NCBI GenBank assembly: GCA_000002435.2
Contig: CM018791.1
From: Giardia intestinalis
Taxonomy: Eukaryota
DNA: 64,000 nucleotides
Reading direction: 5' to 3' (one strand)
In this document: positions 6,701 to 52,437 of the stretch, one piece after another
Position numbering within the stretch: the first letter of the stretch is position 1
How the letters are laid out: each line of letters opens with the position of its first letter
Program-made: the position numbers and the translations under genes
The notes under the pieces: generated by a model
The model's input: only the letters and a program-made list of their open reading frames with translations
Told to the model about the DNA's origin: nothing
The model's database searches: none

Positions 6701-6824
6701 AGTAGTCCATGTCCGCGGCCATTGCGTAGGGGTTCTGGTGGTCACCAGTGGTCTCGTCCTGGCTCGTCCCGTAGTCCCCCCATCCATAGGCTTGGTATCC
6801 GCCCTGCTCCTGATCACCGTCCAT
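3747..6824 (-). CDS. PX-domain protein with an acidic N-terminal region bearing (D/E)MFGF and DAFGFFGFDD motifs, long coiled-coil and Lys-rich segments, and a C-terminal PX domain
   Basis: C-terminal PX signature CRFSEVKELHAAISAAYPAATLPDIPPDRPYALGGWKPEFIRERARLLEAYL (R-F-S-E ... LP ... P ... RR..LE.YL). The track start at 6881 is GTG (plus cac). I place the start at the first ATG, 6824, behind cttaaaaaaATGg. QPDEMFGFGANL and NDAFGFFGFDDAP motifs lie at about 6331-6427. Confidence 0.8.
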   Translation of the reverse strand: MDGDQEQGGYQAYGWGDYGTSQDETTGDHQNPYAMAADMDYYGAPYVAGDGSNPYAYAYGLPEDNAYNDPQELHNDEPKLEAGPIDDEPQDQPVDTCKDEAPRPENPDNDDVQPQYMLEPTNTNDPPAEQPDEMFGFGANLADGAAEVPDAIEPNDAFGFFGFDDAPSTPAAISEAPAPDLAAFSDVTPVMPFSDNDISAVPICVSRVPTPSDSVPIDPSPQTAFAQGPEVVDPAQAEDSAALLEHLRRVRKMLVIDQILRLRAAVGADRVFRDIQPQQLVPIESREEISMALPCDESLQQVLSEEPQCSQEVELLRSFSNADEYVSEDVVSRLQTDPETERSIREAEAIIEDAVVHTPEIKDLESLPDMETAPPLEHISNKTESDSFERIQDSDLIDELKSEISQWGQPALEEHSCASSVHRQVTPCDSTPDDFAPPDSHGPESLLLPSEDLVVDRVATPDVLDGSFGLAQSSDVCQEEPYIEQQVSVHEQEYEPTPEGVLQLPEETLDEFDIEMARKEAEMLEQARREEEEMLRQAEEDLYCQEEEPQGLEDETGHAALRTEQEVQEDSLVVSRLDTPAISLVVDNEDSDSLYVDRLNTPVVELHTPPKHLPKSHTKHKAEHQRDEHAKEKHHAAKQKKEKKLEKPEKEPKHEADKKKTSAIKKKPDLIKETKDAPAEKPQKINGDTSSSKPHSTIKSTTETRRADKKIAKKQQKDKKEPMERETSTTVSSLTESSHSEDIAVAEKLREEQLRKIEEQKKRQEEKELRRLLAEEKLRMDKEIERANRKADREYQKLEAERKRFAVNSQIESNSTTSSAIDTTNSGLLLDRELMREIRLRERRDKELQALRHNIEAQLERESDSVEYDPSVQTLSAIRRSGHGAASSIVRSNKHRDSGRHVSLFVDTSSCSSFYVKVLSHRTVIISGSRPFISYYIELGMDGRRLHISCRFSEVKELHAAISAAYPAATLPDIPPDRPYALGGWKPEFIRERARLLEAYLYSMHSITFVRTSNIYRQFLKAARC

Positions 6825-6973
6825 TTTTTTAAGATACAGAGGCAAAAGGCATCGAGGGGCGGCACTGCGGTCGTGTTTCACTTATTTTCCCCCGGCTGTG
6901 CGGATTCCTCTGTGGCAGCCACGCTACACTAGAGTATTCTTTAACAGTCCACAGGACTCCATGTGGGAAAAAA

Positions 6974-9254: not shown

Positions 9255-10556
9255 ATGATTTACCTGGACAACCAGGCCACTACGGCTATCGACCCCCGCG
9301 TGTTAGCTAAGATGGTCCCGTACATGACCACAAACTTTGCTAATGTTCACTCTACGCACCGTCTGGGGCGCTCTCTCCGAAAGGTTGTTGAGAAGGCCAG
9401 GGAGCAGGTTGCCGGGGCGATAGGTGCCGCGCCCGGGGAGATCATATTCACTAGCGGTGCAACAGAGTCTAATAATATTGCGCTCAAGGGGGTTTGTCAC
9501 TTCTACGGTGATGACAAGCCGCATCTAGCAATTTCCCGGATCGAGCACAAGTGTGTCCTTGAGTCCGCGCGGAAGCTGGAGTCAGAGGGATTTAAGCTTC
9601 ACTGGATAGATGTAGACGACGAGGGACTTGTCAAGTTGGACCAGCTCCAGGACCTCCTGAAGACCTACTACGACCCCGAGGAGGAGGAGTCGAAGGTGGC
9701 CATTGTGAGCATCATGGCTGCGAACAATGAGATTGGGACCATCCAGGATTTGGGGGCCATTGGTAAGGTCTGCGAGCAATACGAGACGCTGTTTCACACC
9801 GATGCAGCGCAGGCCCTCGGCAAGATACCTCTGGATGTGGTCAGAGACAAGATTGATCTGATGAGTCTCTCGGGGCACAAGATTTATGGGCCCAAAGGCG
9901 TGGGTGCCTTGTACATAAAGAGAACCGATGAAAAGAGAGTCCACCTGGACCCCGTGTTCAGCGGGGGCGGCCAAGAAGGTGGGATCCGTAGCGGAACTCT
10001 CCCAGTTTTCCTGGTGGTTGGTATGGGTGAGGCGGCAGAGCTTGCACAGAAGGAGATGAAGAAGGACGCCCTCCACTACAAGAGCCTCTTTGAGATTGCC
10101 AGGGAGAAGCTGCTCTCCCTTCCTTCTGTGAGGCTTAATGGGCCGTTTCCAGAGGACGCGATTCTAGCAGACAAGACAAAAGGCGCTCAAAAGTCTCAGA
10201 AGAAGGAGCCCTTCAGTAAGAAGCGCATTCTTAACAACATGAACATCAGCTTTTTCGGGGTAGAAGGGGAGTCTCTGATGCTTGGATTGGATGATGCCAT
10301 TTGCATGTCCAGCGGAAGCGCCTGCACGTCTCAGTCCCTCGAGCCCAGCCATGTTCTGTTTGCGCTAGGGCTGGACCCAGAGTTTGCTCATACGGCTGTG
10401 CGACTGGGGACATCACGATTTACTACGGAGGCAGAGTTCCGCCGGGCATGCGATCTCATAGCGAAGCAGGTCGCCCATCTCAGGGATCTTTCGCCTCTCT
10501 GGGAGATGACTCAGAAGGGGATCGATACAAAGAGCATAGAGTGGAAGCATGACTAG
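9255..10556 (+). CDS. iscS: Cysteine desulfurase IscS/NFS1 (Fe-S cluster assembly; mitosomal in Giardia)
   Basis: PLP-lysine region SGHKIYGPKGVGALYIKR, active-site loop MSSGSACTSQSLEPSHVL, and full-length class-V aminotransferase-like organisation. ATG behind ttattttttaATG. Confidence 0.9.
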   Translation: MIYLDNQATTAIDPRVLAKMVPYMTTNFANVHSTHRLGRSLRKVVEKAREQVAGAIGAAPGEIIFTSGATESNNIALKGVCHFYGDDKPHLAISRIEHKCVLESARKLESEGFKLHWIDVDDEGLVKLDQLQDLLKTYYDPEEEESKVAIVSIMAANNEIGTIQDLGAIGKVCEQYETLFHTDAAQALGKIPLDVVRDKIDLMSLSGHKIYGPKGVGALYIKRTDEKRVHLDPVFSGGGQEGGIRSGTLPVFLVVGMGEAAELAQKEMKKDALHYKSLFEIAREKLLSLPSVRLNGPFPEDAILADKTKGAQKSQKKEPFSKKRILNNMNISFFGVEGESLMLGLDDAICMSSGSACTSQSLEPSHVLFALGLDPEFAHTAVRLGTSRFTTEAEFRRACDLIAKQVAHLRDLSPLWEMTQKGIDTKSIEWKHD

Positions 10557-15285: not shown

Positions 15286-15331
15286 GGCGGTGTCCGAAAA
15301 ATACGAAAGGGACAGAAATTCACTACACCAC

Positions 15332-16185: not shown

Positions 16186-19100
16186 ATGTTCGGCTATATT
16201 ACTTGTGCAACCACAGGCATCGTGTTAGATCGCCTTAAGACCGCAACGCATGTCGAGCTGCACTTCTGCATTCGCTCTTGCACAGACCCACCTAACATAA
16301 TGGCCACCTCGCCCACGGTCTTCACTCCGCTCCAGCTCAAGGACAAGCGCAAGGGCGTATACACACCAAAGATCACTGATATCACGCTGCCCATACCCCT
16401 ACTAAGCGATCTGGATGCACACGAGCTTTGTATCTCCGTTCTTCTTGCAGAGGTTGCTAAGGATGGCACCACTGCATGTGCAGACCTAGTGCATGTGTGC
16501 TCCAGAGCCACACTTGCAGAGATCCTGGCTGGCCGAACTGTAGAAGAAACAGCTCCTTTCAGCAGCCCAGCTGCTTCACCCTGCACAGACCATATTAAAC
16601 TGTCGCTCTCCTACCGCAAGCCGCTGAGAAAGGCAAACAGTGCAGCGTACGAGTGTCTACGGCTCGACACGCTCTTTATTCAATTAGCCGATATTACGCT
16701 TCCCCTCAGCAAGAGAAGCTATCTAGATGAGCAGCGGCTGTGTCTCCGTGTGTGTACCCAGACGTATGCATCGGAGTTCCCACTAGCTGAGCTTCCCAGG
16801 GATCACTCTACTAAGAGGAGCTACCAGCTGGCCTCTCCGGTACCCATTTCCATTCCCTACTCTCCTGTGATAACCTTTCAGGTTGTCTTTTTGTATAGCG
16901 TAACAGTCTCTGAAACATTTTTCCGGCTGAACGGTCTCCAGGTAGGATCGCCCTCTGCCAATTCCCACAGCTTTTGTGATTACGTGCCTATCTTTCAGTG
17001 CTCAATCAGCAGCAAGAAGAATTTATATAAGTATCAGTCTTTTGGTGTTCCGCTCTCCCTCTGCTTTCCCCCGAGTCTTATATCCTCTGACTTGGTGTCC
17101 TTTTATGACGTCATCTGTGCGTCCCTTCAATTGGCTGCAGACTCCACTCACAAGAAGGCTCCCCGGAGCCTCACAGACCTCTTAGGACACCTTAAGGAGG
17201 CTGTTATCCCACACATTTTTGAGGGCATCTTTCTGCGCGGTGAAGACATAGCCGATGTCTTTTCTCCTTACAGATCTACGATCACTCTCACAAACCATTC
17301 AAAGTCTGACTCTGCCCGCTTCAAGGCTTACGAGAAGATTCTTCAGTATGCAGGTCTCACTGACACACTGCTGGCAGCTGTCGGAAAGGACTGGACAGAT
17401 CTGGCCGTGAGAGTGGGGACAGAGGTTGGTTTTTCACAGAATGTTGCACAGAACAAGATTCTGTTCGTCGCCACTTTTCTTTTGGACATGTTTGAGCCAT
17501 ACTCTTCGTCTGCAGCAAAGCGCAACGATACCATGTACCCTGACTCCACATCAGTATCGACGCCAGGCCTCTCCGAGTCATCTTCTTTCCAACGCTTTGA
17601 GTCCCTTAATTGTGCGTCGCGGGCCCGTGACATGCTCTATGCGTTTTCGTCTAAGCGGCAGGATAAAGATGCGGCAGCCTCGTGTCTCACGATTCTTCCA
17701 ATTGAGTTTTCCTTAGCAAATGCATTAGTATCCAATAAGGTGTGCATTTACACCATCAACTTTTCCGAAGATGGCACAGATGCCAACCAAACCTTTCATG
17801 ACGCTGCCCCCATAGTCATGTCAAAGCCCGAGCTATCTGGGAGCAATCGGGGTCTCTGGCAGTTCACTTTGGAGGAAAGAAGAGATAAGGCGCAGATGAT
17901 AGCTGTCGGGCCTGTACTTAGCGCTACTCAATCGAAGGTGTCCATAAACCGCGTTCTGCTAGGATGTAAGAACAACGCAGAGCTCACCTTTGCTAACTAT
18001 CTTTGGATGCTGCCGCAAGTCCTCTTTCTTCCCGATTCTGTTTCCTCCCAGCAGATGATCCGCGATCGCGTAACAGCGTTCGAAAAGTGCGTCCTTATAG
18101 CATGTCTCTATGACTTTGAGACCGGCGCACTCCTTGCCCGTGGAAGCCTACGATTAAAGAATGTCACTGATACCTTTATTTCAGCCGCAACATCTGATCT
18201 GGACGTCGAAATAAAGCTACGGTGGTTCTATGAACAGGAGTTTTCATCATCCGTTAAGGGGGTCGAGGACACGGTTACATTTTTAGCAAGTTGCTACGGG
18301 TTTCTGAAGGAGTTGGAGCCTGCTGGTTCTCCGCATCAATCTACTCATACCTCAGCGAATGTATCCATCTGTGGCAAGAACAGTGCATGCCTGGTCACCG
18401 CTGAAAACTCTAATAGACCGACGTCTGCGCCTTCCTCTATCCACGCAGAGGCTGCCAACTGTTCGCTGGTGCGCGAAAATTCTCCAGACTGCCCCGAAGA
18501 CTTAAGTACTATTGAGTATGTTCGAGCCCAAGCGGAACCCCGACAATTCACAGAGCGGAGCGAGATAGTGAGCCAGGATGACAAGGGACTACGCACTCCT
18601 CGACTCTTATCAGGAAAGGAGATAGAGATTATTGACGGAACTATTACGTTTCAGCTTGCACCCAGTCAGAGGCAAAGTACATCAGGACCGGTCTGTGGCA
18701 TCCCTAACAACACGAAAGACGAGATAGGTGTACTCAAACAATTAATACATACGTTGCGGAAGGACCTAGATCGGCTCACTCCCAAAACCTTTAGACAAGC
18801 GGTTGCTGCAAGCCCCTCGACATACGCTGGCCTAGAGCATCCGATTTCGGAGGATCTGCGACGGAAAGTGGAGGTCTCCACCGGCTTGGTGATGCAAGAG
18901 GAAGGCACCACATATGAATTATGTCAAACAATAGCTGAAAAGTTGGATCGAAATATCCTAGCATATCTGTTAGTGGATATGGTCAAGCAGAATGTCCAGC
19001 TAAGTAAGGAGCTTGATGGTACCAGAGACAAGATCGATGTTTTGGAGAGCGCCTGTACTACAAATGGTGCGGCGCTATCTAAATTGAAGGCCCTAGTACT

Positions 19101-19491
19101 GGAGCAGGAGCAACTACTTCAATATATGGAAGCGCAAAGCAAAAAGTCGATCCATACGTCAACAGAGTCAGCAGAAAGGCTTATTGCCGTTGAAAAGGAG
19201 AATGCACGGCTCACTGAAATCTTACGGGCCGTTACAGCTTCTTTGGGTAAGGATGGTGCTGCCAAGGTCATCTCCATCTCAAGGAACCCCGCAGGGTATA
19301 CCCGAGCACAGTCATCTCCATCGCTAGATGACGGAAGAAGTGGTGTGTTGCTTAGCGTTAAGCTACCGCCCGGAAGATTGCCTCCGTTGAGTCCTGACCC
19401 AGAAGCCTTGTCTCCGCATGCTGCCAGCAAAGCTTCTAACGTTGCGAAAAGAAAGAGTCCCAGCCAGGCCGTCATCCTTTCGCGGTCCTGA
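16186..19491 (+). CDS. Hypothetical large protein (1101 aa) with a C-terminal coiled-coil segment
   Basis: Long uninterrupted ORF whose ATG lies behind a textbook A/T initiator. Coiled-coil-like heptads run ~18900-19250 (LKALVLEQEQLLQYMEAQ...). No recognisable catalytic motif. Confidence 0.6.
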   Translation: MFGYITCATTGIVLDRLKTATHVELHFCIRSCTDPPNIMATSPTVFTPLQLKDKRKGVYTPKITDITLPIPLLSDLDAHELCISVLLAEVAKDGTTACADLVHVCSRATLAEILAGRTVEETAPFSSPAASPCTDHIKLSLSYRKPLRKANSAAYECLRLDTLFIQLADITLPLSKRSYLDEQRLCLRVCTQTYASEFPLAELPRDHSTKRSYQLASPVPISIPYSPVITFQVVFLYSVTVSETFFRLNGLQVGSPSANSHSFCDYVPIFQCSISSKKNLYKYQSFGVPLSLCFPPSLISSDLVSFYDVICASLQLAADSTHKKAPRSLTDLLGHLKEAVIPHIFEGIFLRGEDIADVFSPYRSTITLTNHSKSDSARFKAYEKILQYAGLTDTLLAAVGKDWTDLAVRVGTEVGFSQNVAQNKILFVATFLLDMFEPYSSSAAKRNDTMYPDSTSVSTPGLSESSSFQRFESLNCASRARDMLYAFSSKRQDKDAAASCLTILPIEFSLANALVSNKVCIYTINFSEDGTDANQTFHDAAPIVMSKPELSGSNRGLWQFTLEERRDKAQMIAVGPVLSATQSKVSINRVLLGCKNNAELTFANYLWMLPQVLFLPDSVSSQQMIRDRVTAFEKCVLIACLYDFETGALLARGSLRLKNVTDTFISAATSDLDVEIKLRWFYEQEFSSSVKGVEDTVTFLASCYGFLKELEPAGSPHQSTHTSANVSICGKNSACLVTAENSNRPTSAPSSIHAEAANCSLVRENSPDCPEDLSTIEYVRAQAEPRQFTERSEIVSQDDKGLRTPRLLSGKEIEIIDGTITFQLAPSQRQSTSGPVCGIPNNTKDEIGVLKQLIHTLRKDLDRLTPKTFRQAVAASPSTYAGLEHPISEDLRRKVEVSTGLVMQEEGTTYELCQTIAEKLDRNILAYLLVDMVKQNVQLSKELDGTRDKIDVLESACTTNGAALSKLKALVLEQEQLLQYMEAQSKKSIHTSTESAERLIAVEKENARLTEILRAVTASLGKDGAAKVISISRNPAGYTRAQSSPSLDDGRSGVLLSVKLPPGRLPPLSPDPEALSPHAASKASNVAKRKSPSQAVILSRS

Positions 19492-19547: not shown

Positions 19548-21347
19548 ATGTCTAATAGGTTTACCACCCAGACGGTGTTGGACTCCGTCCTCAAGAGCCG
19601 GGGCCTGTCCAGCTCAGACACGGAAATGCATGAACTCCCTGCTAGGTGGTCAGCAGTGGCGTCACACCTGTCTTCTTTTTTGCAGTGCGAAAATAACCCG
19701 CTGGAGTGCTACACAGCGATGTATGAGGCGGTCATAAGCCAGCCATGTCTCTCCTTCGAGCAGGACTGCCAGTGTGGGTCGTGCTCAGAGCGCGTGACGG
19801 AGTTCTTCCATTTGGGACCTTGTTCTCACAAGCTCTGTAAAGCCTGCCTCAGAAAGATGTTTGACCAACTCAATGATGAATGTCTGGTCTGCAATGAACC
19901 TATTAGAGAGCTCGCCTTCTGCAAACAGCCTGGCTCCATGCCTCCTCCACCGGCGCTTGTGCCGCCGCCTCTTGCTCTTCCTACCAAGGCCACCCCTGCC
20001 CCTGCACCCGCCTGCGAAGAGTGCCCTGTCTTTGCTTCTATTCTTAAAAAGAATGGTCTGCCACCAGACACGTCCGGAATTGTCCATGGATACAAGAAAA
20101 TCAAACAGATTAATTTACTGGAAGATGACTACATATCGTCTCCTCCTACGGGACAGACCCTTATTCCGGAGGAGGACTTGATATACCTCAGGGACTATAT
20201 GAAGTTTCAGTTCCTACACTTCTTCGAGGAAGTCGATGCCAGCGAGACTATCTTTTGCGCATGGAAGGGCGGCGACGCGGCTGAGCACCAACTCGAGTGT
20301 CCTCTCCGCGAAGATACGTGCAAGAATAAGGCACTTGGTTGCAGCTTTATGCAGCCATACATCATTGTAGCGTATCACGGGATAAACTGCGAGAATATAT
20401 GCCTCTACGAAAGTCAGCCGTGCCCTCTATGCAATAAGACAGTACTGAACAAGGACATGTACACCCATGAGGTCACTTGCTCTAAGAAGCTCATAGAAGA
20501 GCATAAGGAGAAGGTCAAGTCTTCGCAGAAAGAGTACATCGCTGGGGCTCAAGCTACTTTCGCTGCTGAGGCCTCCAAGGAAAACTCTCCTATGAAGAGC
20601 GCGTCTCCCAACAATCCGAATAGCAATCCAAGCATCGTCTCTCCTGAGAACAGGTCCGATGATGACATCAAGGGTATCACGATTAGGGATGCCTGCGAAA
20701 ACATGAACGTGCTGGGAGAGATGTATTGCGACCTTGTGACAGCTGCTCGCCCAGATATATACTCTAGCACCTCCAGCGCTGTCAACTCTTCTACTGACGT
20801 AAGGGGAAGCAGGGAGCTTTTACGCGATCCAACGGAGATTGTTGTGATAGGGCCTGCTGAGCTCTCACCTGAACAGGTCAAAGACATAAAAAGAACCAAG
20901 TCTCCCAAGTCTCCGAAGAGGTCTGGTGCATCGGAAAAGAACGATAACTCGAGGAAAGAAAGGAAGGGAACATCAGAGGCGCGTGTCTTATCTTACGAGG
21001 TCTGCTCCACTGGGTCTGGCCATCCGTTTGTGGTCTACAAGATCGAGCTCCCAAGCCAGGACGGCGGAGAGAGCGTAGTCATCCATAAGCGAATGAAGGA
21101 GATCAAGGCGTTCCACAAGCGCCTGCAGCGCAACTTTCCAAGTATCACGCTGCCCAAGCTTCCGCAGGACAGGCCTTGGGCACTCGGAGGGAACAAGCTT
21201 AAGTTTGTTCAGGAGCGCTCCAGACTTTTGGAGGCATATTGTGGAGACATCAATCACAATGCGATGATATATAAATCGAGGATTTATAAAGACTATATTA
21301 ACGAGCAATGCGCTTATGTGCCGATCACTTATGCTCTTAAAGAGTAG
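19548..21347 (+). CDS. RING-finger + TRAF-type zinc-finger + C-terminal PX-domain protein
   Basis: RING-like CQCGSCSERV...GPCSHKLCKACL...CLVCNEPI (about 19764-19908). TRAF-ZnF-like CPLREDTCKNKALGCSF...INCENICLYESQPCPLCNKTV...HEVTC. PX domain YKIELPS...KRMKEIKAFHKRLQRNFPSITLPKLPQDRPWALGGNKLKFVQERSRLLEAYC. ATG behind taagtaaaactttATG. Confidence 0.8.
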   Translation: MSNRFTTQTVLDSVLKSRGLSSSDTEMHELPARWSAVASHLSSFLQCENNPLECYTAMYEAVISQPCLSFEQDCQCGSCSERVTEFFHLGPCSHKLCKACLRKMFDQLNDECLVCNEPIRELAFCKQPGSMPPPPALVPPPLALPTKATPAPAPACEECPVFASILKKNGLPPDTSGIVHGYKKIKQINLLEDDYISSPPTGQTLIPEEDLIYLRDYMKFQFLHFFEEVDASETIFCAWKGGDAAEHQLECPLREDTCKNKALGCSFMQPYIIVAYHGINCENICLYESQPCPLCNKTVLNKDMYTHEVTCSKKLIEEHKEKVKSSQKEYIAGAQATFAAEASKENSPMKSASPNNPNSNPSIVSPENRSDDDIKGITIRDACENMNVLGEMYCDLVTAARPDIYSSTSSAVNSSTDVRGSRELLRDPTEIVVIGPAELSPEQVKDIKRTKSPKSPKRSGASEKNDNSRKERKGTSEARVLSYEVCSTGSGHPFVVYKIELPSQDGGESVVIHKRMKEIKAFHKRLQRNFPSITLPKLPQDRPWALGGNKLKFVQERSRLLEAYCGDINHNAMIYKSRIYKDYINEQCAYVPITYALKE

Positions 21348-21426
21348 GGTGGCCGCTCGGCTGTGGAAAGAATATTCAATTTGACTGGCGGAAGACCGGC
21401 AGTAAATTACTTTAAAAACAATCGCC

Positions 21427-23535
21427 ATGGAGGAGTTTTTTGGGTTTTCAGACGCGCCGGTTGCTCCTGGCCACGTCTCCGAGGAGGCTCTGTTCTTTGG
21501 CTTTGATGACGCCTCCGCTAACCAGCCGCAGCCCCCCGTCTCCATTCCATTTCCAGTTATCAACCAAGTCGCGACCATCCCAAGGTTTCAGGAGTTCCAA
21601 GAGTTCCAGGAGTATGACTCGCCAGAGCTTCGGGCAGCCAGGCAACCCAAGTTCCTGGATCCAGCACTATTTGTGGGCCCTGGGAGAGAGGACGTCATTC
21701 ATGATGTGGTGATAGATGAGGCAAAGTACGACTTCGGCTACGACCTTGACTACCTGCGAGAAACCACAGATGAGATGAAGACCGAAGAGGACGAGGAGGA
21801 CATAATAAGTAGGCTTCCCTACGGCTTTTCCTCCAACTACACATACAAGGACGATATGGCAGATCTTATGCGTAGCAGCCCTGTGAAAGACATTGTTCTC
21901 CCCCGGGTTGGTGTCACTGTAGAGTGCTCCGACAGTGACATGGAAGCAGAATTCAACCGTCTGCAAGCTATAGACTTCAACGAGAAGCGCAAGGACATAG
22001 AACAGATGCTTCGCATTCGTAGAGAGCAGGAGCACCAGAGAAGGCAAGAGGAAGAGCAAGAACGACTGCGGCAAGAGGCCCTTAAAGCTCAGAGCTCAGT
22101 TCCATCCCGGATCCCCTCTATTCCGGCCGCCGCCCCATCTGCCACTATTGCCTCTGATAGAGCAGTCGGACCTGCTGCCGTTCCAAGCCTTCCTCCCCTG
22201 TCTCAGCCAATGGTTGACGTTGCTCCGCAGCCAGAGCCCCAGCCAATTATGGATCTCCTGATAGCTCCAAAGGCAGTGGAGGCGGTGTATGCCCCGTTAC
22301 AAGCTACCCCTGTACAGCCTATCCATACCCAATCTTCCATTTTAGTGCCATCAGCTCCACCAGCGGCTACTCTGGCCCCTCAAGTATGCTCTATTGAGCA
22401 ACCTCCCTCAGAGGATCCTCAGCTAGAGGAAATGTTCGGATTCCAGTCACAACCCGATATTAGTTACTCCCCAGAAGTCAAGGATCTAGATAAGATAGAG
22501 CCAGACTTGACCGCAGATCCTGCCACAAATCCGGTTATCGTGGACCAGCCTGTCTCAAAGTCGTGGAGCGCAAGAGGATCGATACAGCAGCAGCTAGACA
22601 ATCTACAGAGCGAAATAAAGCAACTAGAGCAAGACTCCATGTTTTCTAAAGAAGATAGAAAGCGGAGCAGACACGCAGAAGCCCGTAAATATCTCGAAAC
22701 CAGAACATATACAGACAACTACGACGTTTTCAGACCGTCGCACCATCTACAGAAGTACTATGCAGCGAAGAAGCCAAAACCAAAGCCAAAGGAAACCATT
22801 TATTCCCCATACTCAGAGACGGAGCTATCGAACCAGCGCATGCAAGTGCGAGCAGAGCTGGAGGCTCAGAAGCACAAAGAGCAGCGGGAGCGCAACTACT
22901 ACGAGAAAATTGAGATCAAAAGGCTAACAGCCATGTACTCCAAGCTCGAATCTGAATTAACCGTCAAAGCCATCAGTGAGGAGCTTGCACAAGAAAAACG
23001 TCAGGAATTTGAAAAGTACTTCAAGAGCGCGTCCCTCCTTGAAAAGAGCTCTGACATGTACACCAGCACACACGATGATAAGACCATACGCATACAGGTA
23101 TCTGAGCATAACGCTTTGCATCTCCCCCGGTCCCTCTTCTTCACCCCTGATGGGAAGTATAAAAACTACGTTAGATACCTGGACTATAGGAAGGTTTTCG
23201 ACCGCTTCACGCACACGCAGGTCCTTATGTTCATATTCGCGGTGTCCTCGCAGGAGCGAAAGTTGAAGTGCATTTCCAAGACTTACGAGGACTTTCATGT
23301 CCTTCACAAGGAGCTTGTGGGGGCCTTCGGGTACTCAGCAGTACCTGGGCTTCCCTCCTTCCGATCCATGAACATGGGTGGCGGTAGACATGAGGTCATT
23401 CATGACACTCAAAAGAGACTAACCAAGTACCTGACTGAAATCAACAACGTCCAGGCTCTGCGCACATCCGCCATCTACAGGAGCTTCCTCAAGCACCAGG
23501 ACCTCAACTTTTTCCAGGGGATGCATCGCCACTAG
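21427..23535 (+). CDS. PX-domain protein with N-terminal acidic FFGF motifs (MEEFFGFSDAP, LFFGFDDAS, EEMFGFQSQPD) and a central coiled coil
   Basis: C-terminal PX-like segment KTYEDFHVLHKELVGAFGYSAVPGLPSFRSM...QKRLTKYLTEI. ATG behind tttaaaaacaatcgccATG. Second gene of a head-to-tail run of three. Confidence 0.8.
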   Translation: MEEFFGFSDAPVAPGHVSEEALFFGFDDASANQPQPPVSIPFPVINQVATIPRFQEFQEFQEYDSPELRAARQPKFLDPALFVGPGREDVIHDVVIDEAKYDFGYDLDYLRETTDEMKTEEDEEDIISRLPYGFSSNYTYKDDMADLMRSSPVKDIVLPRVGVTVECSDSDMEAEFNRLQAIDFNEKRKDIEQMLRIRREQEHQRRQEEEQERLRQEALKAQSSVPSRIPSIPAAAPSATIASDRAVGPAAVPSLPPLSQPMVDVAPQPEPQPIMDLLIAPKAVEAVYAPLQATPVQPIHTQSSILVPSAPPAATLAPQVCSIEQPPSEDPQLEEMFGFQSQPDISYSPEVKDLDKIEPDLTADPATNPVIVDQPVSKSWSARGSIQQQLDNLQSEIKQLEQDSMFSKEDRKRSRHAEARKYLETRTYTDNYDVFRPSHHLQKYYAAKKPKPKPKETIYSPYSETELSNQRMQVRAELEAQKHKEQRERNYYEKIEIKRLTAMYSKLESELTVKAISEELAQEKRQEFEKYFKSASLLEKSSDMYTSTHDDKTIRIQVSEHNALHLPRSLFFTPDGKYKNYVRYLDYRKVFDRFTHTQVLMFIFAVSSQERKLKCISKTYEDFHVLHKELVGAFGYSAVPGLPSFRSMNMGGGRHEVIHDTQKRLTKYLTEINNVQALRTSAIYRSFLKHQDLNFFQGMHRH

Positions 23536-23611
23536 CGCTGAGGACTACTTCCTCATGTAAACTTCTTTCTGCGGTTTTTTAAAAGGCGCCTTAAAAAAAA
23601 GTGTCTGACGG

Positions 23612-26600
23612 ATGGAGGACATTGCCTACACCGACGGATACGCTGCGCAGTACGGAGATAATTATGCATATGATGGGTATGGCTATGGTGGTGACCTGGC
23701 TGTGGGAGATTACAATCCGTACGGAACGGACTATGGTTATGATGCAGGAGGCTACGACTATGGTGCCGGGTACGGTGGGTATGGGAATCAAGAGACTGGA
23801 TATGGCGATCAGACATATGGATATGGTGAGCCTGCTGAGCAACCGCAAGACAGTTTATCGCTTAAGCTGGACGAGCCGAAGCCGTTTACTGAGCAAGACG
23901 ATGGGAGGTCCCTCGTCGTCCGTACTGATGCGGCGTCTGTGTCCATGGATCCTTTTAGTGCGCCCATAGATACAGTGACAGAGCCCATAGGTTCACAGAC
24001 GCACACGAGCTCCGCTTTTCCACCTGTCTCTCAGGACTTGCTGAACTCTATCAGGGTCCAGCAAGAGACTAGTGGAAACCTGAGTAAGTCTCCAAGCAAA
24101 ATCTCAAGCAGGCCTGCCTCTGCTAGACTTGACGAGCTTGATAAGGTAATCGAAGAAGATGCAGAACAGCTTAATAGGGAGGCCAAAACAGATACTCACG
24201 TTACTGGTGCTGCCCCCGATACTAGCGATATGTTTGGCTTTACTGACCAACCGGCGGCACCAACAGCTACCGAAGAGCCTGTCGCAACTGCTGGTGACGA
24301 CATGTTTGGATTTGGGCTAGAAAGTGACGCGCACGATGCAACGGTTCAGCCCCCAGTTGAAGATGCAGGGCCTGCTCTACCTGATAAAGAAGCTCCCTCC
24401 ACTGAGGCCGAAGACGATATGTTTGGCTTCGCCACATCTCCTCAGGAGACCATAGCCAGCCCTCCAGCAGGCTCCACCGCCCCTGCTGCTGAGCCTGTTG
24501 ACGACATGTTTGGCTTCACCGATCCTGCCGTCGAATCAGCGGCTACTGCAGAGCCAGGAACAATGGAGGGCGATGATATGTTTGGATTTGGCCCCTCAGA
24601 AAGCACACCTAAAGATCCTGACACTGATGCATCTGCAGTAGCTAAGGATGTAACGGTGGACGCTCAAGATGCTGCCGATGATATGTTCGGTTTTGATGGA
24701 GCGGGCTCCCCTGCAGAGGCTCCTGCACAATCAACCGAAGCAGTAGCAAGCCCAGTTGCTGACTTGGAGACGGACAGCATGTTTGGCTTTGATTCTCCGC
24801 CAGCCCCAGCAGATAATACTACTACTGTGCCTGTGGATGATTCGGCGGATGACCTGTTCGGATTTGGGCCTTCCACTTTAGATGCACAAGGTGAGCCCGC
24901 CCAAGATGCTCAGCCAGATATTCAAGATGTGGCACAAGTCTCCGCTGACAGCATGTTTGGCTTTGACTTGCCAGCTGATGCCTCGGCAACTGTGGAGCCA
25001 TCAACTACCGGCCTTGCTACTGAGAAGCCAGAGGATTCTCCTGTCGATGACATGTTCGGCTTTTCTCCAAACGAAGCAGCAGCTACAGCCAAGTCAGATG
25101 AGGATCAAGAGATAACGCCGGTGAACACCAAGACTTTAGACGAACCATTGTCAGTAGCAAATGATTACACCCAACCAACAGCTGGGCCCTCAGATGACAT
25201 GTTCGGCTTTGGAAACAGCGCAGATCTTCCTCAAACAGATTCTGTACCCCACTCTGGAGCCACGGCTGATAGCATGTTTGGATTTGACTCTGTACCAGCA
25301 ACAGGGGCCTCGGTAGAACCACCAACAGAGACGCCAGAGCTTCACGACGCATCTCAGACACAACCTACTTTGGACATGCCAACAATTCCAGAGCACATCC
25401 CAACTATAGAGGATAACCAAACGGACCTGTCACATGAGAGTCAAAATGAGAGTCAAGTTGCAAGTGAAGAGTCTGATCAGCTAAGAGAGACCAATGAGAC
25501 GCTGGAAGGAGAGGAAATGAATAAGGAACTGGCACAAGAGCCCGCTGTAGAGGATATGTTTGGCTTTGGGGATGCATCAGCGCCAGTGGAGGATTCCTCA
25601 ACAGAAAAGGCCACTGAAAGCCACCCAACTGAGCCACCTAATTTAGCAGATCTTCCACCTCCTGTGTCTGCATCATCACTGCTTCCCGTGCAGACACTTG
25701 AGTCTGCGAAGCAATCCGCAAGAGCTGCAACTACCCCAGTGGCCGATATGGCCATTGATATAGATTCTATGATCTCGGCTGCACTAGTTCCACAGCAACC
25801 CTCCCCCGCTCCTGAACAGAAGGTCGAGGACCAAGTTCTTGACGAATCCTCGCCTAACGTGATAACTGCAGAGCTTCCTCCCATTGTTGTGAAGGGATCT
25901 TTAGAAGAGGCCAACGACAAGTCTGCCGCAGAGTCGCAACATGAACCAGTAGAGCTCTCGGAGGACCGTGACCTCAGTAAAGATATCGAGCTGGTTGCTC
26001 AAGATCCTCTACCGGCCGAGGAGGATACGCAGGATATTTTTGTTGAGCCAGCTGTGCCAGTTGAAGCTCTAGAAAGGTTGGCGATCAGCGAAACGTTCAT
26101 CAAGCTCCAGGAGGAGCTTCAATTTACATACCTGATGCCAGAGCCTAACCGCGAAGAACTAGACAAGCTCCAGATGACTGATCATGAGCAGCAGCTTATT
26201 CAACTTAAGGACGAAGCGGAGCGGCTACAGAGAGAGAATAAGGTGCTCGCAGGCAGAAGTGCGGCTCCCAGGCATCTCCACCCTAACGAGTTTGATAGCA
26301 AATCTATCTCAGTTAGCTTCTTCGAGGGTCTTCTGAATGAGCCCACCCACAGTGATGGCATATCCCTAACGACTGGGGAAGAGCTTCGGCTCTTGGCGAT
26401 TCTGGAGCAGGGAGACTACGAAGCACTTGATGCTCTTCACGGCATGTCTCCAGAGGAGCTTCAGTTAATGGAGCAACGAGAACGCGAGTTCAATTTGAAG
26501 CTCAAGGAACTCACCGACCGCCGAGACGAGCTGTTGTACAAGGATGATACGGAGGCTTTAAAACTCATTGAGGAAGAGATCTGGGCCTTTGTAGACGCTG

Positions 26601-29047
26601 AGGAAGAAAAGAAAATGCGCATCCAAGCGGCAGACGACCTTTTGAAAAAGCGTGCTCAGGAGGAAGAGGACCGACGTCGTGCTGAGATAGAAGCAAAGAT
26701 CAAGGAGGAGCAGGATCGTGTTGCAGAGGAGCGCCGACTCCAGGAAGAGATGATAGCGCTCCAAAAGAAGCAGCAGCAAGAGTATGCAGAGCAGGAGACT
26801 AGGAAAGCAGATCTTCTCCGTGAGGCCATGGAAAAGGAGCAACTAGAGCGAATTGAGGAGGAGCAGCGCATAAAAGCAGAGGCACGACGACGCCTAATCG
26901 ACGATCTGGAGGCCACAGCTGAACGCGCAGCCGCCGAGGACCGGATACGGGTTAAGGCTGAGTTGGAAGAAATGGCCAGGATCAAAAAGGAACTGGAGGA
27001 GGCTGCCCGGACGGCCAGCGAAGAGAAGCGAAAGCTTCTTCTACAACAGAAGGAGCAATTGGAAAGAGAAATGGCCGAGACAGCAAGACGACACGAGGAA
27101 GACGTGGCGCGTAGGCACAAGGAGCTGCAAACTCTTCATGAGGAGCGGCGGAAGATGCGCGAACAACGCTTAGCCAGCTCAGAACCGATGGATGAGCTTC
27201 TTCGCGAAGATGGCAACGATGCCTCTGCCGATCCGTTCTCATATGCGTCTCTGGACATTGAGCGCAGAATCAGGGAAATGAAAGCCCAGTTAGAGAAGGA
27301 GATGACCGAAAAGATGGCCCTAGAGCACGCTGACCTCAATGCTCTAGAGCAGGAGTTGGCTGCTAAGAAGCTGTCGACCTTACAAGCAGAACGACTCTTA
27401 AGCACGGCTGCAAGCGATACAGTGGCACGGCTCGATAACGAGGATCGTCTCTTTAACGAAGCAATGGATGCCAAGCGCCAGGAGCTGCTTCTTTTGAAAG
27501 AACAGTATGGACTCGTGCGTCACCAGAACGAAAGTCAGCGCGCCTTGCACCTAGAGGAGCAGAGAAAGGCTAAGAAGTTAGCGAGGTTAGTCGAACAAGT
27601 TGCCGAGCTAGCCGAGAAGAAGCACAATTTAGAAAGAAAGATTGCCCATGGAAACAAAGAGTTTCACAAGAAAGAGAGCAAGCTGGTGGCTTCTAACAGC
27701 AAAGGCGCACTCAAAGCGTTGAGAAAGGAGCACGCTAAGGAGCACGAGGCGTTGGAGACGCAGCTCTCTAGCGTCTCAGAGCAGTTACGCAGAGCAAAGA
27801 AGCAGCTCAAGGTACTTAACCCCCAGGGAGAGACTTCTGATATGGACCGATCTCTTAGTGTCAAAGACTATTTGCGCTCCACAGATCGGAGTGAGAAAGA
27901 GCAAGAAGTGTCCGCTGCAGATAAGGACCATTCCCAGCCGCGTCTGTCCGTCTTCGAGGGAGGCTCTCTTGGCCAACCTTCGTTGGTAAGCGGCCATGGA
28001 ATTGGAACAGCGATGTCAACAGGTGTGGACCACGGAGATGGAGGGAGAAAGCAACATGCATCCAGTGACTTGCCTGTAGCGCTGCAGAAGCTGAGAGAGG
28101 AGCACGCTCGCAGGCTTGAGAAGATTGAGCAGCGACGAGCAGCCTTTGCTTCGGAAAGGGAGCAGCTTCAAGCCCAGGCACACGCGCTCGAGGCTCAGCT
28201 TTCCAAGCCCGTCAACGTTCCTGATTCTAAGCTACGCACCAGAGAGCAGCGCAAGCAGATCATTTTCGCAGAGATGAATAGAATGGAAAAGCTGTCGAAG
28301 GCACACATGGTTGAAGTTAAGCCTCAGATCCCAGAGAAAACAATCGATGACATTCTTAACGAACGCCGCAAACGACACGGGGAGGAGCGTGAGCAACTAA
28401 AGAACATGGCAGTGCGCTTTACATCTGCGTACGATCGGCATTCCCGGGTCTCTGTTAACATGGACAGCAGCGACGACGAATGGAATGACCTAGCTGCACG
28501 GACCTCCTCACGTTATGCAGATATTTCTGCTAAGCCACGCTCGATGCAGGCGCAGGTCCGCCAATTTGCATCTGATCGGATAGATCCTGCCTTCAATAGC
28601 TACATCGAGGCCCCTGTGCGACCTGGCTATGAGTCCTCTCTCCTCTCGTATGTGAAGGTGAGCTCTGACCCTACTACGTGCCACCCGACCAAGTTTGTGG
28701 CTCGGCTCACTGCACACACCTGGTGCATTGAGCAGAAGAGCAAGCCGTATGTGGTCTATACGTTTACAATCAGCACAGAGAAGGGTGTCTTTGAAGTAGC
28801 GAAGCGCTTCTCTGAGCTGCGTGAGCTGGACAAGGCGCTCCGTCGCGTTTTCCCAACAGTTACTTTGCCCAAGTATCCGTCGTCTATGGGAGGGAAGTTT
28901 ACTGATGAACAACTGGAGGAGCGGAAGCGGCTCCTTGGGCGCTATATGAGCCAGCTGAATCAGATCGCGGTCATTAGAACAAGCCAGGTGTACAAGGAGT
29001 TTATACAGATGAAGGTGAGACACGATATCCTTGTATATCACCGGTGA
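23612..29047 (+). CDS. Large PX-domain protein (1811 aa): acidic disordered region with 13 (D/E)(D/S)(M/L)FGF motifs, about 700 aa of E/R/K-rich coiled coil, and a C-terminal PX domain
   Basis: PX domain YVVYTFTISTEKGVFEVAKRFSELRELDKALRRVFPTVTLPKYPSSMGGKFTDEQLEERKRLLGRYMSQL. ATG behind ttaaaaaaaagtgtctgacggATG. Repeats counted directly (see the repeat feature). Confidence 0.85.
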   Translation: MEDIAYTDGYAAQYGDNYAYDGYGYGGDLAVGDYNPYGTDYGYDAGGYDYGAGYGGYGNQETGYGDQTYGYGEPAEQPQDSLSLKLDEPKPFTEQDDGRSLVVRTDAASVSMDPFSAPIDTVTEPIGSQTHTSSAFPPVSQDLLNSIRVQQETSGNLSKSPSKISSRPASARLDELDKVIEEDAEQLNREAKTDTHVTGAAPDTSDMFGFTDQPAAPTATEEPVATAGDDMFGFGLESDAHDATVQPPVEDAGPALPDKEAPSTEAEDDMFGFATSPQETIASPPAGSTAPAAEPVDDMFGFTDPAVESAATAEPGTMEGDDMFGFGPSESTPKDPDTDASAVAKDVTVDAQDAADDMFGFDGAGSPAEAPAQSTEAVASPVADLETDSMFGFDSPPAPADNTTTVPVDDSADDLFGFGPSTLDAQGEPAQDAQPDIQDVAQVSADSMFGFDLPADASATVEPSTTGLATEKPEDSPVDDMFGFSPNEAAATAKSDEDQEITPVNTKTLDEPLSVANDYTQPTAGPSDDMFGFGNSADLPQTDSVPHSGATADSMFGFDSVPATGASVEPPTETPELHDASQTQPTLDMPTIPEHIPTIEDNQTDLSHESQNESQVASEESDQLRETNETLEGEEMNKELAQEPAVEDMFGFGDASAPVEDSSTEKATESHPTEPPNLADLPPPVSASSLLPVQTLESAKQSARAATTPVADMAIDIDSMISAALVPQQPSPAPEQKVEDQVLDESSPNVITAELPPIVVKGSLEEANDKSAAESQHEPVELSEDRDLSKDIELVAQDPLPAEEDTQDIFVEPAVPVEALERLAISETFIKLQEELQFTYLMPEPNREELDKLQMTDHEQQLIQLKDEAERLQRENKVLAGRSAAPRHLHPNEFDSKSISVSFFEGLLNEPTHSDGISLTTGEELRLLAILEQGDYEALDALHGMSPEELQLMEQREREFNLKLKELTDRRDELLYKDDTEALKLIEEEIWAFVDAEEEKKMRIQAADDLLKKRAQEEEDRRRAEIEAKIKEEQDRVAEERRLQEEMIALQKKQQQEYAEQETRKADLLREAMEKEQLERIEEEQRIKAEARRRLIDDLEATAERAAAEDRIRVKAELEEMARIKKELEEAARTASEEKRKLLLQQKEQLEREMAETARRHEEDVARRHKELQTLHEERRKMREQRLASSEPMDELLREDGNDASADPFSYASLDIERRIREMKAQLEKEMTEKMALEHADLNALEQELAAKKLSTLQAERLLSTAASDTVARLDNEDRLFNEAMDAKRQELLLLKEQYGLVRHQNESQRALHLEEQRKAKKLARLVEQVAELAEKKHNLERKIAHGNKEFHKKESKLVASNSKGALKALRKEHAKEHEALETQLSSVSEQLRRAKKQLKVLNPQGETSDMDRSLSVKDYLRSTDRSEKEQEVSAADKDHSQPRLSVFEGGSLGQPSLVSGHGIGTAMSTGVDHGDGGRKQHASSDLPVALQKLREEHARRLEKIEQRRAAFASEREQLQAQAHALEAQLSKPVNVPDSKLRTREQRKQIIFAEMNRMEKLSKAHMVEVKPQIPEKTIDDILNERRKRHGEEREQLKNMAVRFTSAYDRHSRVSVNMDSSDDEWNDLAARTSSRYADISAKPRSMQAQVRQFASDRIDPAFNSYIEAPVRPGYESSLLSYVKVSSDPTTCHPTKFVARLTAHTWCIEQKSKPYVVYTFTISTEKGVFEVAKRFSELRELDKALRRVFPTVTLPKYPSSMGGKFTDEQLEERKRLLGRYMSQLNQIAVIRTSQVYKEFIQMKVRHDILVYHR
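24227..25567 (+). repeat. Array of 13 in-frame copies of an acidic (D/E)(D/S)(M/L)FGF(T/G/D/A/S) motif, with spacing of about 25-40 aa
   Basis: SDMFGFT, DDMFGFG, DDMFGFA, DDMFGFT, DDMFGFG, DDMFGFD, DSMFGFD, DDLFGFG, DSMFGFD, DDMFGFS, DDMFGFG, DSMFGFD, EDMFGFG. The nucleotide core ga(t/c)ga(t/c)atgtt(t/c)gg(c/a)tt is itself conserved. Spacers are Ala/Pro/Glu/Asp/Ser/Thr-rich. Confidence 0.85.
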
Positions 29048-29053
29048 ATTGCG

Positions 29054-30175
29054 TTACGTCTCGTGTGACACGGACGTCTCTGGCTGGGAACCCTTCTGGG
29101 CGTATGAGACTTCACAAGTGGACTCATTGTCTTGTGCCTGGCAAACTCTTGAAAAAGCGGGAGTGTCGAGGGCCTTTGACTCTCCTGCCGTTGCGCGTGT
29201 GCTCATATACAATTCAGAGAATGAAGGGGCGTTGTAAATTGACGTTGTCTGGGGGTGTCCTGCTTCGGTGCGTTCATGGCGTCGCTGCGGTCTGTCAGGG
29301 CTGTTCAAGCTGGAGCCATCCCCGAGAGATGATTCGGCTGCTCGCCAGGGTTTGGCGGCAATGGAGGGCAAGACACCGACCGGCTTCTGGTGGACCATGG
29401 AGTCGCTGAGCATCTTGGTAGAGCTACCCGTGGACTTTGCCGAGCCAGACATCATTGTACGGGTGACTGACCTCTTCGGGGTCTTGTATATGAGCTTGAT
29501 CGGGCTTTTTCCGGGGGACGACATGCTCTGAATTGCCATCATCGATTCGCTCTTACTGTACTCATGCATTATCTCCGAACGGAAGTCGCTGAATTCCTGG
29601 ATGCTCTGCAGTGCAGGCTTTTCTGTGCACATGAGCATCGCCGGCGCCCGCGTGTTGAAATATTCTTCTTCCAGCTTTGCGATTGAGTGGGTAGGCTTAA
29701 TATTGGGAATAGGGACTTTCCGGGTAGGGTTGCTTGTAAGCTTAGTGCTTCGCGCCCTTTTCTCAGGATTTTTGCTCTGAATGGCAGCTATCCAGGCAGC
29801 AGTCAACTCTTGCTCTTCACGCATTCGCCTCTTCACAGCATTCATGGGCGAGCCTGTCTTGGAGTTGAGATCACAGTAATCGATGGGACGCTGTTGAACA
29901 AGAAGCCGCGCCTGGCTATACTCCCCCGCTCCCTTGGTTATCTCAGTTATCTTGCGGTATACGCGCTTATTTTCCTTATCTACCTGCCGCGCATTTTCGT
30001 GCTCCCGAAACGGGATGTGGTTGCTGGTGAAGCGACTGATGTGAGTATATTGTTTGGGGGCTGCGTTATCTACAGACGGCTTCAGTCGTGCCAGGCGCTG
30101 CTTATCCTTAAAGTCGCGCTCTTCTCGCCACTTCTTATCAAGAATTCGAGACGCCGTTGGAATGGCACGATCCAT
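29054..30175 (-). CDS. Hypothetical basic (K/R-rich) protein
   Basis: ORF 29054..30196. The ATG at 30175 (MDRAIPT...) lies behind cctaaaaATGg and is preferred to the ATG at 30196. No recognisable domain. Its stop lies 6 bp from the stop of the convergent PX gene. Confidence 0.5.
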   Translation of the reverse strand: MDRAIPTASRILDKKWREERDFKDKQRLARLKPSVDNAAPKQYTHISRFTSNHIPFREHENARQVDKENKRVYRKITEITKGAGEYSQARLLVQQRPIDYCDLNSKTGSPMNAVKRRMREEQELTAAWIAAIQSKNPEKRARSTKLTSNPTRKVPIPNIKPTHSIAKLEEEYFNTRAPAMLMCTEKPALQSIQEFSDFRSEIMHEYSKSESMMAIQSMSSPGKSPIKLIYKTPKRSVTRTMMSGSAKSTGSSTKMLSDSMVHQKPVGVLPSIAAKPWRAAESSLGDGSSLNSPDRPQRRHERTEAGHPQTTSIYNAPSFSELYMSTRATAGESKALDTPAFSRVCQAQDNESTCEVSYAQKGSQPETSVSHET

Positions 30176-30358
30176 TTTTAGGACTACAAAAAGCATTTAC
30201 CCCAGTGGGACATAGTTATCAATATATGCAACCAAGATATGCATCAGCAGGCTGTGTGTCTAGAGTAGTAGAAACTTGCAAGTGACAGAGTTGTCAGATC
30301 CCTCTGCCCCTGATAGATTTTAGAATCAATCAATGCTACAGATCTACTGCGGCACGCA

Positions 30359-52421: not shown

Positions 52422-52437
52422 AAAACTCAATTTTAAA
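52422..52437. promoter_or_regulatory. 16-bp A/T-rich spacer between divergent ATGs; candidate minimal bidirectional initiator
   Basis: Minus ATG at 52421 and plus ATG at 52438 are separated by aaaactcaattttaaa. Confidence 0.4.

Follow-up and report, generated by a model that had tools for sequence, protein, structure and literature searches.

The PX-domain genes of the locus

A 64-kb stretch of the Giardia intestinalis genome (64,000 nucleotides of contig CM018791.1, assembly GCA_000002435.2; hereafter the window) carries four genes encoding PX-domain proteins, and their linkage, architecture and origin are considered here. Three of them, GlPXD3, GlPXD1 and GlPXD2, are consecutive on the plus strand and have homologous C-terminal PX domains; the fourth, GlPXD4, lies 12.7 kb away in inverted orientation. 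The translations of the four open reading frames (ORFs) are identical to GenBank proteins of G. intestinalis WB, where all four entries bear the name 'PX domain-containing protein'. The genes are already known: they are the published, experimentally characterised GlPXD1-4, part of the GlPXD1-6 set of PX-domain proteins of Giardia lamblia (Zumthor 2016, PMC4954726; Cernikova 2020, PMC7058353), and the mapping from accession to gene identifier to GlPXD name is that of Table 1 in Cernikova et al. 2020 (PMC7058353). The genes, their Pfam PX cores and the spacers between them are as follows (positions in the window; aa, amino acids; nt, nucleotides).

19548..21347, plus strand: GlPXD3 (GL50803_16596, A8B341), 599 aa; PX core at nt 21072-21305
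21348..21426, plus strand: PXD3-PXD1 spacer, 79 bp, with an AGTAAAT polyadenylation-type signal and the A/T-rich TTTAAAAAC directly before the ATG
21427..23535, plus strand: GlPXD1 (GL50803_7723, A8B343), 702 aa; PX core at nt 23251-23496
23536..23611, plus strand: PXD1-PXD2 spacer, 76 bp, with the elements TGTAAAC and TTAAAAAAAAG
23612..29047, plus strand: GlPXD2 (GL50803_16595, A8B344), 1811 aa; PX core at nt 28781-29008
3747..6824, minus strand: GlPXD4 (GL50803_42357, A8B322), 1025 aa, an exact match to XP_001710106.1; PX core at nt 3762-3995

On inspection of the sequence, an AGTAAA-like element follows the stop codon of the preceding gene in both spacers, and the next ATG comes directly after an A/T-rich stretch; we take these to be Giardia poly(A) signals and initiators. 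Read in this way, the elements would imply independent transcription of PXD3, PXD1 and PXD2, and as far as the sequence goes this suggests that the PX genes are separately transcribed. For PXD4, the mechanical ORF includes 19 extra codons, extending to a GTG at 6881 (6825-6881, minus strand), and the reference start is the ATG at 6824. The 1044-aa GTG form is used by many Logan gene predictions; an A/T-rich stretch is found just before the reference ATG of the 1025-aa form.

All four proteins match the Pfam PX family (PF00787) at the extreme C-terminus, with 36.4 bits for PXD3, 39.2 for PXD1, 51.7 for PXD2 and 41.5 for PXD4 against a gathering cutoff of 21.6 bits, and in none of them do more than about 15 residues follow the domain. 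An initial annotation of this DNA had recognised a C-terminal PX domain in each of the four ORFs, and this is borne out by the profile scores (36.4-51.7 bits), as are its coordinates, strands and spacer lengths (given as 76-80 bp; 79 and 76 bp in the sequence). The two PX-core peptides that it quoted, DRPWALGGNKLKFVQERSRLLEAY and DRPYALGGWKPEFIRERARLLEAYL, are exact, and the genes at 19548 and 3747, which it had singled out as especially close, do form the closest pair (PXD3 and PXD4, 37.7% identity over 106 aa, E=1.6e-17). Pairwise identity among the four PX domains is 22-38%; in BLASTP comparisons, the domain of PXD1 matches that of PXD2 at E=1e-7 and that of PXD3 at E=3e-6, and gives no match to that of PXD4. 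A fifth PX domain was not found in the window, either by Pfam on all long ORFs or by a six-frame scan with two purpose-built PX hidden Markov models.

An AlphaFold2 model, made for PXD3 only, places the strands of the PX domain at residues 479-515 and the helices at 516-585, with pLDDT values of 74-89. In a Foldseek search with this model, the top 50 PDB matches were all PX domains (E down to 5.7e-7); SNX16 is among them, and the target TM-scores against the PX structures of CISK, SNX27 and SNX11 are 0.72-0.84. The phosphoinositide contacts, which the initial annotation had proposed to compare, are canonical in two of the four proteins and altered in the other two. In the alignment, the R-[Y/F] lipid-binding pair is canonical in PXD2 (KRFSE) and PXD4 (CRFSE); in PXD3 (KRMKE) the arginine is kept and the aromatic residue replaced, and in PXD1 (KTYED) the arginine of the pair is missing. 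An (L/V)P..P loop is present in all four domains, and ER.RLL in three. Phosphoinositide binding has been reported experimentally for GlPXD1-6: PXD1 prefers PI(4,5)P2, PXD2 binds PI3P and PI(4,5)P2, PXD3 binds PI3P, and PXD4 binds PI(3,5)P2 and PI(4,5)P2 (PMC7058353). The divergent contact residues agree with these divergent lipid preferences.

The Giardia domains share the PX fold, the PxxP loop and the helix-2 arginine with the sorting nexins (SNX3, SNX10, SNX11, SNX16, SNX27 and CISK/SGK3), and PXD2 and PXD4 have the R-[F/Y] pair in common with them as well. Unlike in sorting nexins, the Giardia PX domain sits at the extreme C-terminus; Pfam gave no BAR/Vps5 match C-terminal to PX in any of the four proteins, and no BAR, FERM, PDZ or kinase partner domain elsewhere in them. 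Two further differences from sorting nexins are a family-specific DRP[W/Y]xLGG insertion after PxxP in PXD3, PXD4 and PXD5, and the reported GlPXD partners, which are clathrin and AP2 rather than retromer.

Linkage in other Giardia lineages and in G. muris

The published count of PX proteins in the Giardia genome is six. The other two genes, GL50803_16548 and GL50803_24488, lie outside the window. In a genome of 12.1 Mb, the probability that at least four of six randomly placed genes would fall within 25.3 kb is ~5e-7, and the probability that three of six would fall within 9.5 kb is ~4e-5. The linkage of the four PX genes is non-random, and the initial annotation, which had remarked on four PX genes in about 25 kb of a genome that has few, was right on both counts. 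Genes that separate and flank the PX genes include the following, some of them with the identity to their G. muris orthologue.

3075..3707, minus strand: HD-domain gene, beside PXD4 in both species and outside the inverted block described below; 48% identity
6974-9157: ankyrin-repeat gene of 727 aa (Ank727), without a counterpart at the G. muris locus
9255..10556, plus strand: cysteine desulfurase IscS, the first conserved gene within the inverted block; 68% identity
11895-13943: high-cysteine membrane protein/VSP-like gene, without a counterpart at the G. muris locus
14557-15567: DDI1-type aspartyl protease gene, without a counterpart at the G. muris locus
16186..19491, plus strand: GL50803_7721, 1101-aa hypothetical protein with no Pfam domain; a synteny anchor, not a PX gene
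29054..30196, minus strand: CFAP97-like GL50803_6544, adjoining PXD2 here and PXD4 in G. muris; 50% identity
30359..33175, minus strand: ankyrin-repeat gene of 938 aa (Ank938), to which the ankyrin gene preceding IscS in G. muris is most similar (E=3e-32)

The array consisting of the gene for the 1101-aa hypothetical protein, PXD3, PXD1, PXD2, the CFAP97-like gene (minus strand) and the ankyrin gene (minus strand) is present in three other assemblies of the G. intestinalis complex, in which PXD3 is 79, 70 and 69% identical to the window copy. An exact copy of the protein GL50581_3300 in the sample of the 79% lineage identifies that lineage as assemblage B. When 1.84 billion representative proteins were searched with a profile, G. 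muris TNJ28570 and TNJ28561 were recovered. In that species, four PX orthologues are located on one strand within 23.5 kb (CM016926.1, in the region 1002230-1045756), and when the G. muris genes were each compared with the window by tblastn, the one-to-one orthology of all four PX genes was confirmed, that of PXD4 having 62% identity over the PX domain. The G. muris order is IscS, a 240-aa gene (minus strand), a 1032-aa gene, PXD3, PXD1, a NEK/ankyrin kinase, PXD2, four unrelated genes, the CFAP97-like gene (minus strand), PXD4 (plus strand) and the HD-domain gene (plus strand). In all the Giardia lineages examined, the gene directly before PXD3 is GL50803_7721; its G. muris orthologue is 25% identical (E=2e-65).

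In a neighbour-joining tree (125 columns, 63 PX domains, 200 bootstraps), the groups that unite G. intestinalis and G. muris orthologues have bootstrap values of 99% for PXD1, 99% for PXD2, 83% for PXD3 and 100% for PXD4. Together with the conserved linkage, these orthologue groups imply that the four genes and their linkage predate the split between G. intestinalis and G. muris. The cluster is ancient, older than the divergence of the two Giardia species, and the synteny that the initial annotation had suggested looking for is found both in the three other lineages and, as linkage, in G. muris. A recent duplication, a gene conversion product or an assembly artefact would be suggested only by the adjacency of the genes and their uniform short spacers. 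This explanation is refuted by two results: blastn (word size 7, E<=1e-3) detects no nucleotide similarity between any two PX genes, and the same array recurs in four or more lineages that were assembled independently, as well as in the chromosome assembly of G. muris. The genes are not recent duplicates.

The arrangements in the two species differ in a simple way. In G. muris, an ankyrin gene is followed by the block that runs from IscS through PXD3, PXD1 and PXD2 to CFAP97, and then by PXD4 and the HD-domain gene; in G. intestinalis, the HD-domain gene and PXD4 come before the block (with Ank727 next to IscS), and Ank938 comes after it. By tblastn, the ankyrin gene that precedes IscS in G. 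muris corresponds to Ank938, beyond CFAP97 in the window, and not to the ankyrin gene beside PXD4. This reciprocal exchange of flanks at both breakpoints implies that one inversion separates the two species (window 3075-33175), with breakpoints between PXD4 and IscS and between the CFAP97-like gene and the 938-aa ankyrin gene.

The G. muris locus in turn has additional genes, namely the NEK/ankyrin kinase inserted between PXD1 and PXD2 and the four genes between PXD2 and the CFAP97-like gene, which include an LCAT-family and a RING gene. A PXD2-like protein of 1584 aa from the Logan assembly of SRR30592944 and a PXD1-like protein of 516 aa (P0104) are very close to the G. muris proteins; the sequencing run that they come from probably contains that species or one closely related to it.

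It may be asked whether selection has held these genes together, as a functional cluster in which coordinated expression or chromatin context of four peripheral-vacuole (PV) and clathrin proteins is maintained. The linkage has survived an inversion whose breakpoints fall beside PX genes, it is present in two species with chromosomes that are otherwise not collinear (PMC7641422), and the products belong to one interaction network, as in the reciprocal co-immunoprecipitation of PXD2 and PXD4. However, conserved local gene order is usual between the two Giardia genomes, with 3043 positional orthologues reported (PMC7641422), so that retention of linkage is not special. Unrelated genes also lie inside the cluster, with the NEK kinase between PXD1 and PXD2 in G. 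muris and five genes in G. muris or seven in the window between PXD4 and the array. PXD4 is oriented like the array in G. muris and opposite to it in the window, a separate spacer with A/T-rich initiator-like sequence belongs to each gene, and PXD5, encoded at a different locus, acts at the same organelle. A selected cluster is thus an unlikely explanation, albeit one with some arguments on its side.

Elsewhere in the window, two long ankyrin-repeat ORFs at 50985-52604 (minus strand) and 52408-54393 (plus strand), which have mechanical GTG and TTG starts, overlap by ~200 bp; their real starts are probably further in.

N-terminal regions and the clathrin connection

The regions N-terminal to the PX domains fall into two kinds. 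PXD1, PXD2 and PXD4 share an architecture in which a disordered region with acidic FGF motifs is followed by a charged helical region and then by PX, and PXD3 has a likely RING and putative zinc fingers instead. The relevant features are located as follows.

24218-25576, plus strand: PXD2 FGF motifs (D-D-M-F-G-F) in the disordered region, aa 203-655
21430-21507 and 22426-22443, plus strand: PXD1 FGF motifs at aa 4, 23 and 336
6333-6431, minus strand: PXD4 acidic FGF motifs, aa 132-164
19764-19910, plus strand: likely C3HC4 RING of PXD3, aa 73-121
20256-20480, plus strand: conserved Cys/His array of PXD3, putative zinc fingers, aa 237-311

The motif [D/E]-[D/E/S]-[M/L/F]-F-G-F-[G/D] occurs 13 times in PXD2, three times each in PXD1 and PXD4 and not at all in PXD3, and the long ORFs of the window contain only one other FGF. 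When the residues of the disordered regions were shuffled 20,000 times, the observed number of FGF copies was reached in 1/20,000 shuffles for PXD1 and never for PXD2 or PXD4; the maximum for PXD2 was 3, against the 13 observed. Motif columns in the alignment of PXD2 orthologues are 73% conserved, compared with 35% in the disordered sequence around them (p=1.6e-14), and conservation of the motif columns above their surroundings is also significant in PXD1 and PXD4. The G. muris proteins have 6 (PXD2), 2 (PXD1) and 3 (PXD4) FGF copies. The 1101-aa neighbour GL50803_7721 was searched for a degenerate PX domain and for the FGF motif, and neither was found.

A Tyr/Gly/Asp-rich N-terminus is common to PXD2 and PXD4, and the N-terminal regions of these two proteins, including the motif stretch, match in BLASTP at E=1.7e-5. 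The charged helical region of PXD2 spans about aa 850-1600, and residues 960-1400 are 72% E/K/R/Q/L/A and 1.4% P+G. This composition is consistent with the 'giant coiled-coil' of the initial annotation, but PXD2 is not a separate form, as it shares the acidic-FGF architecture. N-terminal domain shuffling into RING/TRAF, FFGF-acidic and giant coiled-coil forms, as had been proposed for the genes, is borne out only in part and does not fit three of the four: PXD3 does differ from the others, whereas PXD1, PXD2 and PXD4 have one architecture among them.

Published work places these proteins at the clathrin assemblies of the cell. All four GlPXD proteins of the window localise to PVs and clathrin/AP2 assemblies and co-precipitate clathrin heavy chain (CHC), AP2 and dynamin; over-expressed PXD2 clusters vacuoles, and over-expressed PXD3 coats them (PMC7058353, PMC4954726). 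CHC spectral counts were 65/92 with PXD2 as bait, 6/24 with PXD4 and 9/26 with PXD3, and PXD2, which has the most motif copies, gave the most CHC and AP2 spectra (PMC7058353, PMC4954726). GL50803_7721 and GL50803_6544 are absent from the published PXD interactome tables.

The FGF motif appears to resemble only a relaxed clathrin box, [MLF]-F-x-F-[DG]; three G. muris LFGFD copies fit the canonical L-phi-x-phi-[DE] pattern. In a scan for canonical endocytic motifs, DPF/W, FxDxF, WxxF, NPF and gamma-ear motifs were essentially absent. We infer that the FGF motif may bind the clathrin terminal domain or the AP2 appendages. AP180/CALM and epsin offer a parallel, in that PXD1, PXD2 and PXD4 likewise pair a domain that binds phosphoinositides with an extended acidic disordered region bearing 3-13 evenly spaced motifs. 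As in adaptors of the AP180/epsin type, the motif is kept while the spacers drift, and the PXD proteins co-precipitate CHC and AP2. Unlike AP180/CALM and epsin, however, their lipid-binding domain is PX rather than ANTH/ENTH and is C-terminal, and the motif [DE][DES][MLF]FGF[GD] differs from the DLL, DPF/W, FxDxF and strict clathrin-box motifs of these adaptors. The likeness is a 'works like' analogy in which binding is presumed, and no membership in that group is claimed. It is possible, though somewhat less likely than not, that the FGF motif is a lineage-specific clathrin/AP2 binder and that PX proteins replace AP180/epsin-type adaptors in Giardia. No mention of the acidic FGF motif was found in the searchable literature; the two key papers (PMC7058353, PMC4954726) describe no such motifs in PXD proteins, and one review states that these PX proteins have no other special sequences.

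The N-terminal region of PXD3 contains the pattern C-x2-C-x12-C-x-H-x2-C-x2-C-x11-C-x2-C, and both its ligands and the Cys/His ligands of the array that follows are invariant across six orthologues (from the G. intestinalis lineages, G. muris and an environmental sequence, P0089). RING families match all six orthologues, with a best E of 2e-5 for zf-RING_5, although in the window protein every RING family stays below its cutoff (best Pfam score 24.5 bits, cutoff 27). Weak PDB matches are to the RINGs of RNF168 and TRAF6. A RING is likely on this evidence. The TRAF part of the 'RING/TRAF' form named in the initial annotation is unconfirmed: zf-TRAF has no Pfam match at E<=1 in any of the six orthologues, and a TRAF-type finger is suggested only by a weak PDB match to 2d9k (FLN29; E=0.023, PXD3 aa 241-313). 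The full-length AlphaFold2 model of PXD3 is poor overall (pLDDT 54.8) but confident in its PX part, and since nothing other than PX is found among the top 50 Foldseek matches of the full-length protein, the search does not inform the RING and zinc-finger part. Polyubiquitin matches to aa 161-197 were rejected as an artefact in which nine repeats at 1.7 bits each are summed.

The environmental relative P0089, a 750-aa protein encoded beside a SEP-domain gene in JGI metagenome sample 3300010163 (positions 446-2698 of locus L006), has the order RING, zinc finger, coiled coil, PX, and probably comes from outside Giardia. No mention of a RING-PX relative beyond the Giardia sequences was found in the accessible literature, and its existence tempers the published view that the family is 'completely species-specific'. 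PXD3 is like the RING E3 ligases TRAF6, RNF168 and XAF1/TRAFD1 in having a RING-type pattern followed by invariant Cys/His fingers; unlike TRAF-type ligases, it is without TRAF-C/MATH and is fused to PX. It is predicted that PXD3 is probably a membrane-anchored E3 ligase.

Origin of the cluster and its meaning

The genes of the cluster have several traits in common that bear on their origin. All four encode a C-terminal PX domain, compared with 34/146 PX hits from outside the cluster (23%). Among PXD2, PXD3 and PXD4, PX-domain identity is 28-32%, and their best outsiders reach 26-29%. With the motif shared by PXD1, PXD2 and PXD4 and the linkage retained in G. muris, these traits make local duplication the most economical account, and a shared origin of the four genes by this route is probable, not proven. 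The initial annotation had proposed local duplication as well, and this part is supported; the event was not a recent one, given the lack of nucleotide similarity and the orthologues in G. muris.

We favour, with a probability of about 0.8, the reading that the locus is an ancient cluster of paralogues that arose by local duplication, in which linkage is a relic rather than an operon-like unit, and in which the proteins combine lipid anchoring by PX with an N-terminal link to clathrin/AP2. An ancestral gene with a C-terminal PX domain would have duplicated locally before G. intestinalis and G. muris diverged. The copies would then have diverged over a long time, with one inversion now setting the arrangements of the two species apart, and the linkage may have been kept as a relic of duplication through the generally good local synteny of Giardia genomes. 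In the proteins, the C-terminal PX domain would bind phosphoinositides on PV and plasma membranes, and the N-terminal part would join the static clathrin/AP2 assemblies. For PXD1, PXD2 and PXD4, this link would run through multiple acidic [M/L/F]FGF[G/D] motifs, which are clathrin-box-like and multivalent; PXD3 would instead carry a RING and zinc fingers and is probably a membrane-anchored E3 ligase.

Several observations weigh against this reading. The deep nodes of the tree are weak (37% bootstrap for PXD3/4/5 and 12% for all Giardia-type sequences), and monophyly of the four PX domains is not recovered with support in what is only a neighbour-joining tree of 125 columns. The phylogeny that had been suggested alongside the initial annotation is firm for the orthologue groups (83-100%) and weak for deep relations (12-37%). 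The dispersed PXD5-like gene, which is on another contig with no PX neighbour within 10 kb, groups with PXD3 (65%, in a group with two environmental RING-PX relatives), so that the members of the cluster are not each other's exclusive closest relatives. This grouping fits dispersal from the cluster, and it also implies that the cluster is not an exclusive clade. The PX domain of PXD1 is 18-24% identical to its paralogues, compared with a mean of 19% and a maximum of 25% to outside PX domains. On the clathrin side, none of the FGF copies in the window meets the strict clathrin box L[IVLMF].[IVLMF][DE] (ELM LIG_Clathr_ClatBox_1), and PXD3, which has no FGF motif, reciprocally co-precipitates CHC and AP2 (PMC7058353); the motif therefore cannot be the sole route to clathrin. 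A PX-only protein from a compact eukaryote, P0093, which has no PX neighbours and groups weakly with PXD2, was set aside as uninformative on the age of the cluster.

The divergent PX domain of PXD1 could point to a mixed origin, in which PXD2, PXD3 and PXD4 arose by local duplication and PXD1 (or another member) came from a different PX/SNX ancestor and was brought in by rearrangement. This domain resembles outside PX domains as much as it does those of the neighbouring genes, with which its BLASTP matches are weak or lacking; it also lacks the canonical arginine (KTYED), and a PI(4,5)P2 preference is reported for it. Against this, every lineage has PXD1 flanked by PXD3 and PXD2 on a common strand, and its product resembles PXD2 and PXD4 both in the C-terminal placing of the PX domain and in the acidic FGF motif. 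It is very unlikely that another of the few PX genes landed by chance in an array of 9.5 kb, and fast divergence accounts equally well for the weak similarity of PXD1. A mixed origin is for these reasons quite improbable. The further suggestion of the initial annotation, that the locus is the birthplace of the family, is a plausible hypothesis, but the weak deep nodes and the distance of PXD1 from its neighbours leave it at that.

No mention of the linkage, of the synteny with inversion in G. muris, of the FGF motif or of the RING in PXD3 was found in the accessible open-access literature, a scope that does not include Jana 2017, which is said to be the primary paper on the six Giardia PX domains. 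The cluster as such is best seen as an ordinary relic of duplication, and the results are useful annotations rather than a surprise. They give evolutionary context to a published family: four of the six PX proteins would form one ancient linked group of paralogues, each member of which was already present before G. intestinalis and G. muris diverged, and a RING-PX relative is encoded on an environmental metagenome contig. Few known endocytic systems are as divergent as the peripheral vacuoles and static clathrin arrays of Giardia, for which the PX proteins serve as the chief lipid anchors. The acidic FGF motif provides a testable handle on how these proteins engage clathrin and AP2 and, if its proposed role is true, could help to find the rest of the static giardial clathrin machinery.

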